NCBI RefSeq assembly: GCF_024502345.1
Contig: NZ_JALDNN010000001.1
Source: Escherichia coli
Lineage (GTDB): Bacteria; Pseudomonadota; Gammaproteobacteria; Enterobacterales; Enterobacteriaceae
Reading direction: 5' to 3' (one strand)
DNA length: 64,000 nt
Positions 6,835-31,535 of the stretch are shown piece after piece. Each line of letters opens with the position of its first letter. The stretch's first letter is position 1. Under the pieces are notes generated by a model. It saw nothing but the letters and a program-made list of their open reading frames with translations. It did not search any database and had not been told where the DNA came from. The translations under genes and the position numbers were made by a program.

Positions 6835-8577
6835 ATGATAAAACCGACGTTTTTACGCCGGGTGGCCATTGCTGCTCTGCTCTCAGGAAGTTGTTTTAGC
6901 GCCGCCGCCGCGCCTCCTGCGCCGCCCGTCTCGTATGGTGTGGAGGAAGATGTCTTCCACCCGGTACGCGCGAAACAGGGAATGGTAGCGTCTGTGGACG
7001 CCACTGCCACTCAGGTGGGGGTGGATATTCTCAAGGAGGGCGGGAATGCCGTTGATGCCGCCGTGGCGGTGGGCTACGCGCTGGCGGTAACGCATCCGCA
7101 GGCAGGGAATCTGGGCGGTGGTGGTTTTATGTTAATCCGCTCGAAAAATGGCAATACCACGGCTATCGATTTCCGCGAAATGGCACCCGCCAAAGCGACC
7201 CGCGATATGTTCCTCGATGATCAGGGCAACCCGGACAGCAAAAAATCACTCACTTCGCATCTGGCTTCCGGCACACCGGGTACGGTAGCAGGTTTCTCGC
7301 TGGCGCTGGATAAATACGGCACCATGCCGCTGAACAAAGTCGTGCAGCCCGCGTTTAAACTGGCACGCGATGGTTTTATCGTTAACGACGCGCTGGCTGA
7401 CGATCTCAAAACCTACGGTAGCGAAGTGTTGCCGAATCACGAAAACAGTAAAGCTATCTTCTGGAAAGAGGGCGAGCCGCTGAAAAAGGGCGACACGCTG
7501 GTGCAGGCGAACCTGGCAAAGAGCCTGGAGATGATTGCTGAAAACGGCCCGGACGAATTCTATAAAGGCACGATTGCGGAACAGATCGCCCAGGAGATGC
7601 AGAAAAACGGTGGCTTGATCACTAAAGAAGATTTAGCGGCCTATAAAGCGGTCGAACGCACTCCGATAAGCGGCGATTATCGCGGGTATCAGGTTTACTC
7701 CATGCCACCGCCATCCTCCGGCGGGATCCATATCGTACAAATCCTCAATATTCTGGAAAACTTCGATATGAAGAAATACGGCTTTGGCAGCGCCGATGCG
7801 ATGCAAATCATGGCAGAAGCGGAGAAACACGCCTACGCCGACCGCTCGGAATATCTTGGCGACCCGGATTTTGTCAAAGTCCCGTGGCAGGCACTGACCA
7901 ATAAAGCCTATGCCAAATCCATTGCCGATCAAATTGATATCAACAAAGCGAAGCCGTCCAGTGAGATTCGCCCTGGCAAGCTTGCGCCTTATGAGAGTAA
8001 TCAAACTACCCATTACTCAGTGGTGGATAAAGATGGTAACGCGGTGGCGGTGACCTATACGCTGAACACCACCTTCGGTACGGGCATTGTCGCGGGCGAG
8101 AGCGGTATTCTGCTTAATAATCAGATGGATGATTTCTCCGCTAAACCGGGCGTACCGAACGTTTACGGGCTGGTGGGCGGTGATGCCAACGCCGTCGGGC
8201 CGAATAAACGTCCGCTGTCGTCAATGTCACCAACGATTGTGGTGAAAGACGGTAAAACCTGGCTGGTCACCGGTAGCCCTGGCGGGAGCCGGATCATCAC
8301 TACAGTGCTGCAAATGGTGGTGAATAGCATCGATTATGGCATGAACGTCGCCGAAGCGACCAATGCGCCGCGTTTCCACCATCAGTGGTTGCCGGACGAG
8401 CTGCGTGTCGAAAAAGGGTTTAGCCCGGATACGCTCAAGCTGCTGGAAGCAAAAGGTCAGAAAGTGGCGCTGAAAGAGGCGATGGGCAGTACACAAAGCA
8501 TTATGGTTGGGCCGGACGGTGAGTTGTACGGCGCATCCGACCCGCGCTCGGTGGATGATTTAACGGCGGGGTACTAA
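6835..8577 (+). CDS. ggt: Gamma-glutamyltranspeptidase
   Basis: ORF track 6808..8577; start set at ATG 6835 (MIKPTFLRRVAIAALL...), 580 aa; signal peptide and recalled Ggt sequence. Confidence 0.95.
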   Translation: MIKPTFLRRVAIAALLSGSCFSAAAAPPAPPVSYGVEEDVFHPVRAKQGMVASVDATATQVGVDILKEGGNAVDAAVAVGYALAVTHPQAGNLGGGGFMLIRSKNGNTTAIDFREMAPAKATRDMFLDDQGNPDSKKSLTSHLASGTPGTVAGFSLALDKYGTMPLNKVVQPAFKLARDGFIVNDALADDLKTYGSEVLPNHENSKAIFWKEGEPLKKGDTLVQANLAKSLEMIAENGPDEFYKGTIAEQIAQEMQKNGGLITKEDLAAYKAVERTPISGDYRGYQVYSMPPPSSGGIHIVQILNILENFDMKKYGFGSADAMQIMAEAEKHAYADRSEYLGDPDFVKVPWQALTNKAYAKSIADQIDINKAKPSSEIRPGKLAPYESNQTTHYSVVDKDGNAVAVTYTLNTTFGTGIVAGESGILLNNQMDDFSAKPGVPNVYGLVGGDANAVGPNKRPLSSMSPTIVVKDGKTWLVTGSPGGSRIITTVLQMVVNSIDYGMNVAEATNAPRFHHQWLPDELRVEKGFSPDTLKLLEAKGQKVALKEAMGSTQSIMVGPDGELYGASDPRSVDDLTAGY

Positions 8578-8585
8578 GGTTAGCG

Positions 8586-8613
8586 GCCCTCTTCGTGGGA
8601 AGAGGGCTATTTT
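8586..8613. terminator. Hairpin terminator between convergent ggt and yrhB
   Basis: Perfect 9-bp stem gccctcttc / gaagagggc (8586-8594 and 8599-8607) with 4-nt loop, followed by tattttg. Confidence 0.6.
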
Positions 8614-8614
8614 G

Positions 8615-8899
8615 TCAGGGCAAGCCGAAGGTAGCCTTTTTTATTTCGTAATCCTGTAGATATTCTTCCAGCGGCTTTGCCGTTCCCAGAGAATGAATTT
8701 CACCACTGTCTTTATCAATAATAAAAGGTGCGTTACCAGCTAAGCGCGCGGCCTCATCTCCAGTTTCGAGAAATTCTCGTGCTTCGAAACAGAAATACCA
8801 GCCCTGGCTAAAGCGTCCATGTAGAGTAATGACGACCGGGAGATCTGCATCATCAAGGTAATGGTTCGCTTTCGCGAATGCGTCGTGATAAGTAATCAT
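8615..8899 (-). CDS. yrhB: Small heat-stable chaperone-like protein YrhB
   Basis: 94-aa ORF MITYHDAFAKANHYLDD... recalled as YrhB. Confidence 0.85.
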   Translation of the reverse strand: MITYHDAFAKANHYLDDADLPVVITLHGRFSQGWYFCFEAREFLETGDEAARLAGNAPFIIDKDSGEIHSLGTAKPLEEYLQDYEIKKATFGLP

Positions 8900-9098
8900 A
8901 ATTATAATAAATATTATTGTTGAGTGTTATATTATTATTCCTGTGTGATACATTGAGCAAAGACGCGTTCATCTTCGTCAAAGATATTATTAAATGCTGG
9001 TTTTGAAAAAAGTTCATCGGATAAGATATAGTCACGAAATAAGTATCTGCTAATATTTTATGATTTCTTTTTCAGAACGTCGAACGGGATTTTCTTAT

Positions 9099-9254
9099 TT
9101 AAGATATCAGAATCTTATGATTCGGGTAAAATTCTAAATAAATCAACATGTCATTAAAATCATCATAGCCATTAGCTATTTCGGCTAAAATAGAGACTAC
9201 ATGTCTTCGGTCCATCTCACTTAAGGAGTGTAGTTCCGTTGTAAGTTTTTCCAT
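9099..9254 (-). CDS. yrhD: Small protein, 51 aa (YrhD-like), not on the supplied ORF track
   Basis: Hand translation of the minus strand from ATG at 9254 gives MEKLTTELHSLSEMDRRHVVSILAEIANGYDDFNDMLIYLEFYPNHKILIS then stop at 9099-9101. Length and position match my recollection of K-12 yrhD; below the 60-aa track cut-off. Confidence 0.5.
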   Translation of the reverse strand: MEKLTTELHSLSEMDRRHVVSILAEIANGYDDFNDMLIYLEFYPNHKILIS

Positions 9255-9348
9255 AGCTTGCACTGCTAAATTTCGAACAAGGAATTTTCTGCTGGTAATC
9301 TCTAAAAAGATGGCATGGTTTACAATGATTTTTGTTTCCTTTTGATTA

Positions 9349-9843
9349 TTATGAACAACTGTCCATGATTTCGTTTAAGAATGAAGAGAAATCACTAAAC
9401 GAACTGAATATATTTTCTGTGCCAATATTATCTCTAATTTCAAAAAAGTTACTTTTAATGTCATAAGTAAATATTGAAATGCTATCATCCCCGATCACTA
9501 ACCGTTCTTGTAGATCAGGGTTTATGAAATCATCATTATTTCTATAAAATTCATTTACGGCAAAAAGGTTTTTAACTGAAGGTTCTGGAATCGAGAGGCT
9601 AAATAATCGTAATCCATTAACTTCGAATCCATCCATTGCTCTTAAAAAAGTAAGATAATCAGGTTGATTCTTAAAAAGAATACTAACTTCATTACATAAC
9701 TTCTCCAGGCAATTAGTTGAATTAGAATTAAATTCTATTTGGATTATACTTTCAATAAATGATTCCTTGAGCGGAGCTTCAAATGGATAGTCTAAATCAT
9801 TCATCATTTTTATTAATTTATTTATTTGGGTTTTAGTCATCAT
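9349..9843 (-). CDS. yrhA: Putative immunity protein for the upstream Hcp-nuclease toxin (YrhA-like, apparently intact)
   Basis: 164-aa AT-rich ORF immediately downstream of the toxin gene, with ATGA start/stop overlap (9840-9843); position typical of a toxin-immunity pair. Function inferred from context only. Confidence 0.6.
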   Translation of the reverse strand: MMTKTQINKLIKMMNDLDYPFEAPLKESFIESIIQIEFNSNSTNCLEKLCNEVSILFKNQPDYLTFLRAMDGFEVNGLRLFSLSIPEPSVKNLFAVNEFYRNNDDFINPDLQERLVIGDDSISIFTYDIKSNFFEIRDNIGTENIFSSFSDFSSFLNEIMDSCS

Positions 9844-11018
9844 TTTGTGTGGTCCATAATATTTTTCATGGGAGGATAAATTGAGCCAGATGGAATGGCC
9901 CAGGGAGTGATTTTGCTTTCACCTACTAATATTCCCTTAGCTATTCGTGATTGCATGTTAGTAAAAACTTTATGATATGGTTCGTTTTCGATTAATACTA
10001 AATTTTCGAAATCATTAGTACCACCATCATCTAGAGATAGTTTATGGTGAACATTATAATTTAGAGGAGCATTGCCCTTTCTCATTCTTAAAAGGTCTTC
10101 GGCGTTGAATCTTCCAGATGCTTCGGAGGTTTTTGCAAGTTTGATAAGAAAATTTTTTCTTACAGTTTTATTAAACTCCTTTCGTAAGTTAGCTAAGTCT
10201 TTTGAAGGTCTCTTAATGTATATTATTTCTATTATGTCTATACCATCAAGAAGTTTTTGTTGACCTCTAAGTTTGCCTAAGTAACTATTTATTTCTGTAT
10301 ATGTATCAACATTAGAACGCTTTGTTAAAAGAATAGATGCTGTTGCTATCGCTATGCCCGCTGTTTTTTCATTTAGTATTTGATCATAGCCTTTTATTGC
10401 ATCTCCACCCAGTTTTTCCGCAGTATCTCTGAATCCTTCAATGTTCCCATTGTATACGCCACCAGCAGCAAGTAGCCTGCCAATAGCTTTGCTGTTTAAC
10501 GTTTTGAAACGATTATTTGTTTGGTTTTTTGAATTTGGTAAAAACAAACGGTTATAATTTTCAGGGAGTGCCAAATAGCTGAACTCGGTATTTGCGATAA
10601 GATGTTGACAGAGGATAAATTCATAACTAATAGTTATTGTTTCTGTATCCAGTTGGTTTTCAATGATCTGGTGATGAATAGCCGATAAAAAAGCGCCTCT
10701 TAGTTGTATATAATAATACTTTTCCAATCTACCAAATCTATTTATTCGATAGAAGTCAAATCCCATAAATAATTGTTCATTATTGTTAATGGAATTAATA
10801 AATAATGGAGTGCTTTTATCAATTAATTTACAAAATGTTATACCATGGAACTGTGAACCAAGCCCCGTATTATTAATATTATTTAAGAGTGAGAATGTAA
10901 ATATTTCATCCTCATGCCCGCTCTGCCAACGATTACCTGTAGACTCAGAAGTCCCACAACCTGCGGAGATGCTTCCTTGTTGTTCTCCCGTTACTGTCAG
11001 GTAAACAATATTACTCAT
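9840..11018 (-). CDS. yhhZ: Hcp-family protein with C-terminal HNH/colicin-DNase-like nuclease domain (Hcp-ET type polymorphic toxin, YhhZ)
   Basis: 392 aa. The N-terminal roughly 150 aa (MSNIVYLTVTGEQQGSISAGCGTSE...GHEDEI...) resemble Hcp/T6SS tube protein. The C-terminus carries NVHHKLSLDDGGTNDFENLVLIENEPYHK, matching the HH...GG...D..N...H pattern of colicin E9-type HNH DNases. Low G+C. Confidence 0.85.
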   Translation of the reverse strand: MSNIVYLTVTGEQQGSISAGCGTSESTGNRWQSGHEDEIFTFSLLNNINNTGLGSQFHGITFCKLIDKSTPLFINSINNNEQLFMGFDFYRINRFGRLEKYYYIQLRGAFLSAIHHQIIENQLDTETITISYEFILCQHLIANTEFSYLALPENYNRLFLPNSKNQTNNRFKTLNSKAIGRLLAAGGVYNGNIEGFRDTAEKLGGDAIKGYDQILNEKTAGIAIATASILLTKRSNVDTYTEINSYLGKLRGQQKLLDGIDIIEIIYIKRPSKDLANLRKEFNKTVRKNFLIKLAKTSEASGRFNAEDLLRMRKGNAPLNYNVHHKLSLDDGGTNDFENLVLIENEPYHKVFTNMQSRIAKGILVGESKITPWAIPSGSIYPPMKNIMDHTK

Positions 11019-11250
11019 CCCTGAAAAGTCCTTTTATGGCATGCTATTTTATCAATGGCAATATTATGCTTGTTAATTGTTATTTATTTACTCCAGGAAA
11101 TTGTAGGCGTATATATTAAAAAAATATTACACTTTAGGAAGTAATTATGAGTTAAATCTCAATATATGTATTGGGCAAATAAATACCTTAAAGGAAGGTA
11201 TGTCGATTTTGAATGACACCCTTTTTCCATCTCAGAAAAAGGGCACTATC

Positions 11251-11860: not shown

Positions 11861-11950
11861 GCGATCAGGAAGACCCTCGCGGAGAACCTGAAAGCACGAC
11901 ATTGCTCACATTGCTTCCAGTATTACTTAGCCAGCCGGGTGCTGGCTTTT
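11861..11950 (+). ncRNA. ryhB: RyhB small RNA (Fur-repressed, iron-sparing response)
   Basis: The 90 nt gcgatcaggaagaccctcgcggagaacctgaaagcacgacattgctcacattgcttccagtattacttagccagccgggtgctggctttt match RyhB as I recall it, ending in a Rho-independent terminator (gccagccgggtgctggc + T9). Lies between yhhY and yhhX as in K-12. Confidence 0.9.
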
Positions 11951-12071
11951 TTTTTGATCTTTCGTTCTCAATTTATCCACGGGAGTGCTTGTGTTCGTTA
12001 TGCGCACTCCAGTAGGAACCACGTCCGCTTTGCGCTAAGGTGTAAATAACCACCTTAAAAAGGACGAAATC

Positions 12072-30460: not shown

Positions 30461-30469
30461 ATTGCCAAC
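30461..30469. repeat. 9-bp target-site duplication (left copy) attgccaac
   Basis: Identical to 31527..31535, directly flanking the IS termini. Confidence 0.85.
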
Positions 30470-30487
30470 GGCTTTGTTGAATAAATC
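30470..30487. repeat. IS903 terminal inverted repeat (18 bp)
   Basis: ggctttgttgaataaatc; exact reverse complement is found at 31509..31526. Confidence 0.9.
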
Positions 30488-30525
30488 AGATTTCGGGTAA
30501 GTCTCCCCCGTAGCGGGTTGTGTTT

Positions 30526-31449
30526 TCAGGCAATACGCACGCTTTCAGGCATACCTGCTTTCGTCATTTTGTTCAGCGCTCGTACCAGGGCCATAGCCTC
30601 TGCAACCTGACCATCGTAGTCACGCAGTGTCAGTGAACCCCCGAACAGCTGTTTTACCCGGTACATCGCCGTTTCCGCTATCGAGCGACGGTTGTAATCT
30701 GTTGTCCATTTCCACCGCGCATTACTCCCGGTCATTCGCTGATTAGCCACTGCACGGTTACGGTCTGCATATTCACCGGGCCAGTAACCCGCACCTTTTC
30801 GGGGAGGGATAAGCGCGCTGATTTTCTTACGCCGCAGTTCATCGTGACATAGCCGGGTATCGTAAGCGCCATCGGCGGCGGCTGACCTGATTTTCCGGTG
30901 GGTTTGCCGGATTAACCCGGGGAAGGCCTCTGAGTCCGTAACGTTGTTCAGCGACAGGTCAGCGCAGATGATTTCATGTGTTTTACTGTCAACGGCGAGA
31001 TGCAGCTTACGCCAGATACGGCGGCGTTCCTGGCCATGCTTTTTGACTTTCCACTCGCCTTCACCGAAGACCTTCAGCCCGGTGGAATCAATTACCAGGT
31101 GTGCGATTTCACCCCGGGTGGGCGTTTTGAAACTGACATTAACCGACTTTGCCCGCCTGCTGACACAGCTGTAATCCGGGCAGCGTAGCGGAACGTTCAT
31201 CAGAGAAAAAATGGAATCAATAAAGCCCTGCGCAGCGCGCAGGGTCAGCCTGAATACGCGTTTAATGACCAGCACAGTCGTGATGGCAAGGTCAGAATAG
31301 CGCTGAGGTCTGCCTCGTGAAGAAGGTGTTGCTGACTCATACCAGGCCTGAATAGCTTCATCATCCAGCCAGAAAGTTATGGAGCCACGGTTGATGAGGG
31401 CTTTATTGTAGGTGGGCCAGTTGGTGATTTTGAACTTTTGCTTTGCCAC
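30526..31449 (-). CDS. IS903 transposase (DDE, IS5 family)
   Basis: ORF track 30526..31494 (TTG); probable GTG start at 31449 giving 307 aa beginning MAKQKFKITNWPTYNKALINRGS..., which matches my recollection of the IS903 transposase; also ...LVIDSTGLKVFGEGEWKVKKHG.... Confidence 0.9.
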   Translation of the reverse strand: MAKQKFKITNWPTYNKALINRGSITFWLDDEAIQAWYESATPSSRGRPQRYSDLAITTVLVIKRVFRLTLRAAQGFIDSIFSLMNVPLRCPDYSCVSRRAKSVNVSFKTPTRGEIAHLVIDSTGLKVFGEGEWKVKKHGQERRRIWRKLHLAVDSKTHEIICADLSLNNVTDSEAFPGLIRQTHRKIRSAAADGAYDTRLCHDELRRKKISALIPPRKGAGYWPGEYADRNRAVANQRMTGSNARWKWTTDYNRRSIAETAMYRVKQLFGGSLTLRDYDGQVAEAMALVRALNKMTKAGMPESVRIA

Positions 31450-31508
31450 GGAACGGTCTGCGTTGTCGGGAAGATACGTGATCTGATCCTTCAACTCAGC
31501 AAAAGTTC

Positions 31509-31526
31509 GATTTATTCAACAAAGCC
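31509..31526. repeat. IS903 terminal inverted repeat (18 bp, other end)
   Basis: gatttattcaacaaagcc = reverse complement of 30470..30487. Confidence 0.9.
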
Positions 31527-31535
31527 ATTGCCAAC
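31527..31535. repeat. 9-bp target-site duplication (right copy) attgccaac
   Basis: Identical to 30461..30469. Confidence 0.85.

Follow-up and report, generated by a model that had tools for sequence, protein, structure and literature searches.

The yhhZ-yrhA gene pair of Escherichia coli, a probable Hcp-carried colicin-like DNase effector and its predicted SUKH-fold immunity protein in an AT-rich chromosomal island

Within a 64,000-nucleotide stretch of Escherichia coli DNA (contig NZ_JALDNN010000001.1 of assembly GCF_024502345.1; the whole stretch is called the window below), one open reading frame (ORF) had been read, from the letters alone, as an orphan toxin related to type VI secretion systems (T6SS), in which an Hcp-like domain is fused to a colicin-type HNH DNase and followed by an immunity gene. 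The gene is yhhZ of E. coli (b3442 in K-12) and the gene downstream of it is yrhA; both are already named, annotated and reported as characterised. We conclude that the pair very probably encodes a colicin-like DNase effector, carried by Hcp and open to use by a T6SS compatible with it, together with a SUKH protein that confers immunity. The features of the pair, in window coordinates, are as follows.

9840..11018, minus strand: yhhZ, an ORF of 392 residues with an ATG start, encoding an Hcp-fused HNH DNase toxin of Hcp-ET1 type
10578..11018, minus strand: Hcp (TssD) domain, residues 1-147, assigned from TIGR03344, Pfam T6SS_HCP and PDB matches
10320..10505, minus strand: start of the portable module, residues 172-233, a Gly/Ala-rich four-helix bundle (GRLLAAGGVYNGN..., TAGIAIATASILL)
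9864..10292, minus strand: DNase domain of colicin/pyocin type (His-Me finger), residues ~243-385
9960..10049, minus strand: H-N-H active-site motif with H324, H325, N335, N339 and H349, and with T353 at the position of H573 in colicin E7 (ColE7)
9349..9843, minus strand: yrhA, encoding a 164-residue putative cognate immunity protein (candidate ETI1) of predicted SUKH/SMI1-KNR4 fold

Profile searches bear out the Hcp-like N-terminus that had been read from the sequence. The domain matches the NCBIfam model TIGR03344 (Hcp1/TssD) at E 3.8e-34 and over model positions 1-161 of 167, scoring 118 bits where the curated cut-off is 58.9; it also matches Pfam T6SS_HCP (E 2.5e-11) and the solved structures of Hcp3 and Hcp in the PDB (E 2e-11 to 3e-9). 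Compared with the aspV-linked T6SS cluster of E. coli strain 55989, it is closest, at 37% identity (E 5e-33), to the 160-residue Hcp that ends the cluster, and is 30% identical to the main Hcp of that cluster. The label of canonical TssD was considered for YhhZ and rejected: a canonical TssD is a single-domain protein of ~160-170 residues encoded within a T6SS cluster, whereas YhhZ has 392 residues, carries a 245-residue extension and is encoded outside any such cluster.

The extension contains the colicin-type HNH motif, HHKLSLDDGGTNDFENLVLIENEPYH, at residues 324-349. A family profile built from 35 homologues, with identities down to 47%, was compared with PDB sequences and found the DNase domains of colicin E7 (E 2e-4) and pyocin S2 (E 7.5e-4), as well as those of pyocin AP41 and colicin E2. 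The profile alignment to ColE7, ELHHEKPISQNGGVYDMDN, runs past the HH...N residues into the preceding 'LRKEF..RKxF...' helices. In an AlphaFold model of residues 154-392, the predicted local distance difference test (pLDDT) score is 87-97 over the DNase part and 76-84 over residues 172-233, which form helices. The top Foldseek matches of this model are the DNases of pyocin S2, pyocin AP41, ColE7 and ColE9, with a probability of 1.00, and the fold also matches the Rhs2-CT and Cas8-HNH nucleases. Residues H324, H325, N339 and H349 correspond to H544, H545, N560 and H569 of ColE7 and are invariant in 35 of 35 homologues, so that the mutated catalytic histidine named beforehand by the sequence-only reading as the sign of an inactive relic is not seen. 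In a published classification of His-Me finger proteins, YhhZ has a separate group, number 32, and is judged to be a nuclease.

Downstream, the start of yrhA overlaps the stop of yhhZ by 4 bp (ATGA). YrhA matches NCBIfam NF038335 (YrhA family), its sole family match; against Pfam, including the SMI1_KNR4 models, there was no match even at E <= 10. Structure modelling nevertheless predicts an alpha/beta SUKH fold, and together with the overlap this upholds the earlier description of the locus as a toxin/immunity cassette. In each context examined, namely the chromosomes of Klebsiella and Enterobacter, IncHI2 and Pantoea plasmids, and SPbeta-like phages, the toxin module has a YrhA homologue directly 3' of it. 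A literature search returned no paper connecting yrhA with Hcp. Of the features by which an Hcp-ET is recognised, a complete Hcp domain, a C-terminal toxin extension and an immunity gene downstream are present at yhhZ; T6SS-dependent delivery and antibacterial activity are reported for Hcp-ET1.

At the matching ggt-yhhY locus, strain 55989 encodes a YhhZ that is identical to the window protein at 390 of 392 residues, and the YhhZ of a K-12-like strain differs from it by one residue. Hcp-ET1 (Ma et al. 2017, Virulence 8:1189) is described in reviews as an Hcp-HNH DNase of STEC004, O104:H4 C227-11 and 55989; according to these reviews, ETI1 neutralises it and T6SS2 delivers it, its DNase antagonism being T6SS2-dependent. 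A preprint adds that Hcp-ET1 is encoded by an orphan hcp outside the T6SS clusters, with its immunity gene downstream. The aspV-linked cluster of 55989, which contains Hcp, VgrG and Rhs, fits the T6SS2 of the review. YhhZ and YrhA resemble Hcp-ET1/ETI1 in the Hcp N-terminus, the HNH DNase C-terminus, the immunity gene directly downstream and the ggt-yhhY locus. They differ from the 55989 pair in having Ala317 and Ala300 in place of Val and Thr, and from K-12 in that the window yrhA is intact whereas that of K-12 is split by IS1. Codon 317 (window 10068-10070) lies seven residues ahead of the catalytic HH, and Val is found there in 55989, in the K-12-like strain and in Nissle.

With colicins E7 and E9 and pyocins S2 and AP41, YhhZ has in common the His-Me finger (beta-beta-alpha-metal) fold, the HH...N...H motif and, beyond the motif, the preceding helix region 'LRxxF...RKxF...P(E)...F', as well as the pairing of a non-self-killing toxin with an immunity gene. 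The identity to these DNases is, however, only ~20-30%, and YhhZ has an extra Gly/Ala-rich helical subdomain (residues 172-233). Immunity to colicins and pyocins is provided by a four-helix Im protein of ~85 residues, whereas YrhA has 164 residues and a predicted SUKH fold; and while colicins and pyocins are delivered by receptor-binding and translocation domains, YhhZ would be delivered by its Hcp carrier. Among other HNH effectors of the T6SS, the Rhs2-CT/RhsI2 pair of Serratia marcescens differs in its Rhs/PAAR carrier, and its similarity to YhhZ is marginal (profile E 0.53).

The pair belongs to a larger island, the remaining features of which are given here.

8578..11250, no strand assigned: AT-rich island of 2673 bp, from the ggt stop codon to the yhhY stop codon, carrying yrhB, yrhD, yrhA and yhhZ
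9099..9263, minus strand: yrhD, a small ORF of 51-54 residues (9099..9254 in the RefSeq annotation of yrhD)
8615..8899, minus strand: yrhB, encoding a 94-residue Imm35-family protein

All four island genes are on the minus strand. The AT-rich islet noticed in the sequence is borne out by a GC content of 30-34% over 8600-11250, compared with 50-59% in the flanks. Its placement between yrhB and yhhY held in part: yhhY is the direct neighbour of yhhZ on one side, but on the other side the neighbour is yrhA, with yrhB two genes further. YrhB matches Pfam Imm35 at E 4.6e-23 over residues 5-83, covering the full model, and its gene is probably a stand-alone (orphan) immunity gene; yrhD has no family match. 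Homology to genomes that lack the island breaks exactly at 8577 (the ggt stop) and 11251 (the yhhY stop), and at the empty site these genomes have 60 unrelated bp between ggt and yhhY. Comparison with the empty-site genomes, in which the entire intergenic sequence differs, revealed no repeats or attachment sites at the island ends. Scans of the island for promoters and terminators gave 15 sites, compared with 12.6 expected from shuffled sequence, and thus no excess. PADLOC models of defence systems found no match in the region.

The gene order of the window, livG-ugp-ggt ... yhhY-yhhX-yhhW-gntRKU-asd-glg-glpD-rtc-mal-feo-ompR-envZ-pckA, is that of the E. coli chromosome. Strain HCP4S3_I4 is colinear with the window at 98-99% identity, except for one insertion of 1057 bp in the window. 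In the corresponding stretch of the closest annotated genome there are no tss, vgrG or PAAR genes, and all of the genes there are housekeeping genes, in agreement with the earlier statement that the 64 kb contain no T6SS core genes. The insertion is IS903B (IS5 family, 1057 bp) at 30470-31526, within the four-gene cluster between glgP and glpD; its transposase is a 322-residue ORF on the minus strand (30526..31494), and it is flanked by a 9-bp target duplication (30461-30469 = 31527-31535). An IS903B at this site was found in 0 of 5426 complete E. coli genomes, which makes it a strain marker. Over 25 kb, the best match to the window among the genomes compared is 99.4% identical. Rfam RF00057 (83 bits, E 3.6e-14) places the small RNA RyhB at 11890-11954 on the plus strand, between yhhY and yhhX, which is its usual position in E. 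coli and ~640 bp from the island edge.

Put together, these elements would work as follows. YhhZ would be a specialised Hcp, with residues 1-147 serving as a tube subunit and residues 172-385 as an H-N-H (His-Me finger) DNase. In a cell with a compatible T6SS (reportedly T6SS2), the Hcp domain would be built into the tube, or carried with it, and fired into a neighbouring bacterium, where the nuclease would degrade the DNA of the target cell. YrhA, translationally coupled to the toxin gene, would bind and block the nuclease and so protect the producer and its kin, and yrhB (Imm35) would act as an additional stand-alone immunity gene. For toxicity, neutralisation and T6SS2 delivery this account draws on the literature, through the reviews and the preprint cited above, and for the domain identities, catalytic residues, immunity fold, pairing, island anatomy and distribution on the present analysis. 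By analogy, the pair may be deployed likewise in the source strain of the window.

Several observations weigh against a T6SS-delivered DNase effector, at the level of the protein and at that of the genome. The identification of YhhZ with Hcp-ET1, and of YrhA with ETI1, is itself presumptive, being drawn from secondary accounts and from the identity to the 55989 protein. Searched as a single sequence, the C-terminus stays below significance with both Pfam models (HNH, E 0.015; Col-Pyo_DNase, E 0.36), and Thr353 occupies the position of the third zinc ligand of ColE7, H573 (H131 in ColE9), the family consensus being 'PYHKVLT'. This ligand of the E-group colicins is absent from many HNH enzymes that are active; Thr353 therefore counts against strict membership of the colicin DNase family, and not against activity. 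The weak HNH match and the missing ligand would suit a plain tube protein with a degenerate and inactive C-terminal HNH, as would the label 'tssD: type VI secretion system tube protein' that part of the RefSeq records gives to YhhZ and the opinion of Blondel et al. (2009), who described YhhZ as an 'evolved Hcp' and considered its HNH domain degenerate and unlinked to T6SS function. We find this scarcely credible, because the family profile and the model put the C-terminus firmly among the colicin/pyocin DNases, the catalytic His-Asn-His set does not vary between genera or N-terminal contexts, a dedicated immunity gene is always attached, and DNase-dependent antagonism is reported for Hcp-ET1 in reviews.

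At the level of the genome, 0 T6SS genes lie within the 64-kb window, as judged from the colinear annotated genome with IS903B as the sole extra DNA, and the distribution of the island raises the same difficulty on a larger scale. Of the 5426 complete E. coli genomes surveyed, 3757 (~69%) carry the full island, always at the ggt-yhhY locus, chromosomal, in single copy and away from T6SS clusters. The toxin-domain DNA likewise occurs as one full copy per genome, with second matches in some genomes. The description of yhhZ as an orphan is apt in that no T6SS genes are nearby; the position is not special to this strain, being the fixed and normal site of yhhZ in these genomes. Within E. coli the ggt-yhhY gap is hypervariable, its other states (loci L013-L016) being yrhB only, the empty 60-bp spacer and, in O157:H7, a 303-residue DUF4225-domain gene. 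The tssBC genes of the 55989-type cluster were found in 2184 of the 5426 genomes, which leaves at least 1573 island carriers without a 55989-type T6SS, a lower bound that comes from the genome counts (3757 vs 2184), not from a genome-by-genome comparison, and that concerns this cluster type, T6SS1 and T6SS3 lying outside the survey.

K-12 adds to these difficulties. It is reported to lack any T6SS, and K-12-like strains have an intact yhhZ together with the IS1-split yrhA; since the toxin is kept there while its immunity gene is broken, the toxin would be either not expressed or not toxic in that background. Among the 'promoter islands' of K-12, a published paper lists yhhZ and yrhA in its section on the binding of H-NS to islands of this kind, and this listing fits the silencing of AT-rich acquired DNA. 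As to selection, the ratio of nonsynonymous to synonymous substitution rates (dN/dS) between the window and the Nissle allele is 0.38 for yhhZ, from only 34 substitutions, and 0.18 for yrhA; with so few substitutions, both genes appear to be under modest purifying selection between divergent E. coli alleles.

The main rival explanation takes up this evidence and holds that the locus is a silent passenger in this strain, with the toxin undeployed, either for want of a compatible T6SS or through silencing by H-NS, and with yrhA and yrhB selected as protection from YhhZ-armed E. coli. The carriers without a 55989-type T6SS, the presence of yhhZ in K-12, the tighter constraint on yrhA than on yhhZ, the genomes that keep yrhB alone and the AT-rich character of the island, with its promoter-island listing linked to H-NS, all speak for it. 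So does the O145 strain RM10425-C1, which shows the reverse of the decay seen in K-12-like strains, yhhZ being frameshifted and yrhA intact (the opposite decays are seen at loci L019, 1440-2622, and L020, 1079-2221). Against it, the window yhhZ is full-length with all of its catalytic residues intact, and the database copies are mostly full length as well (two clusters of 392-residue proteins have 13190 and 1877 members). K-12, moreover, runs counter to what protection would predict, its toxin gene having survived and its immunity gene not, and since the figure of 1573 covers the 55989-type T6SS only, the premise of 'no T6SS' is unproven for these genomes. We hold this explanation to be possible but doubtful, and it does not exclude the reading of the pair as a T6SS effector and its immunity protein.

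A further line of evidence comes from the reuse of the toxin-immunity module behind other N-termini. In a database search with residues 154-392 of YhhZ, the module was recovered as an Hcp fusion from E. coli, Citrobacter and others. From K172 on, where the homology to proteins with other N-termini begins, it also follows DUF8093 (PF26362), an unrelated N-terminal domain; the genera concerned are Enterobacter, Klebsiella, Leclercia, Pantoea, Erwinia and Serratia. At the loci examined in Klebsiella and Enterobacter, a gap of 14-17 bp separates the DUF8093 gene from a downstream gene for 166-167 residues; one such downstream protein was compared with YrhA and is 59% identical to it. These two-gene cassettes (L002-L008; gene at 8001-9146 in L005-L008) occupy housekeeping or integrase-flanked sites, and neither secretion genes nor a T6SS were found near them at these loci. 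The DUF8093 N-terminus itself has no match in PDB sequences or NCBIfam, and a literature search found no paper mentioning DUF8093.

On plasmids, the module occurs behind a third type of N-terminus. About 450 plasmid records carry it at ~49% identity, and 434 matching plasmids are typed as conjugative. This version is a 353-residue 'HNH endonuclease' whose C-terminal 220 residues are ~49% identical to the YhhZ module, whose N-terminal ~130 residues are unrelated to Hcp or DUF8093, and downstream of which lies a YrhA-family gene. On the Salmonella IncHI2A plasmid NC_021845.1 (L021, 4578-6155) the pair adjoins traG and trhH, the downstream gene being annotated as 'YrhA family protein'; a Pantoea plasmid provides a second example (L023, 3575-5155). 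In SPbeta-like phages of Bacillus, exemplified by phage vB_BsuS-Goe12 (L022, 2058-4415), a 628-residue protein has an N-terminal LXG domain (Pfam E 6.9e-57) and a YhhZ-like DNase at its C-terminus, 44% identical over 142 residues (E 7e-32), and the 152-residue protein encoded downstream is a detectable YrhA homologue (E 1e-6). The LXG toxin differs from YhhZ in its carrier, in its type VII secretion system (T7SS) and in its Gram-positive host, and the match does not include the Gly/Ala-rich subdomain (query residues 73-214 only). Such reuse of one nuclease-immunity pair, with Hcp, with LXG and with still other carriers, is the hallmark of polymorphic toxin systems; the DUF8093, IncHI2-plasmid and LXG observations lie outside the window and serve as leads only.

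The same observations bring in an explanation that dispenses with the T6SS, in which the pair would serve addiction or stabilisation, or defend the cell from within by means of its nuclease, and Hcp would be only a leftover carrier. Its appeal lies in the abundance of the pair on conjugative plasmids, where its place next to transfer genes on IncHI2A makes addiction or exclusion plausible, in the DUF8093 cassettes, which stand among housekeeping genes and have no secretion genes close by, and in the PHROG families, which match both YhhZ (over residues 168-382) and YrhA. We judge it very unlikely nonetheless. Being complete and well over the family cut-off in score, the Hcp domain has not decayed; there are no PADLOC matches; the LXG homologue, the Rhs2-CT fold match and the SUKH fold point to secreted polymorphic toxins; and T6SS2 dependence is reported for a near-identical protein. 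A broader proposition, that the yhhZ-yrhA cassette or the portable DNase-YrhA module functions without the known T6SS2 route, we rate as improbable, though somewhat less so: the island carriers without a 55989-type T6SS, taken with the DUF8093 and plasmid N-termini (~430 conjugative plasmids), make another delivery route, or a role in addiction or exclusion, conceivable.

Descriptions of the class to which YhhZ belongs (evolved Hcp, or Hcp-ET) go back to 2009, and experimental characterisation was reported in 2017; the finding of YhhZ in the window is a rediscovery. The puzzle that it presents for the species is that ~69% of E. coli, T6SS-less K-12 included, retain the toxin, and the delivery of the DUF8093 and IncHI2 versions is a puzzle of the same kind. 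For the family, the locus is a textbook case of a polymorphic toxin, with one DNase-immunity pair placed behind Hcp (T6SS), LXG (T7SS), DUF8093 and a plasmid-borne N-terminus.

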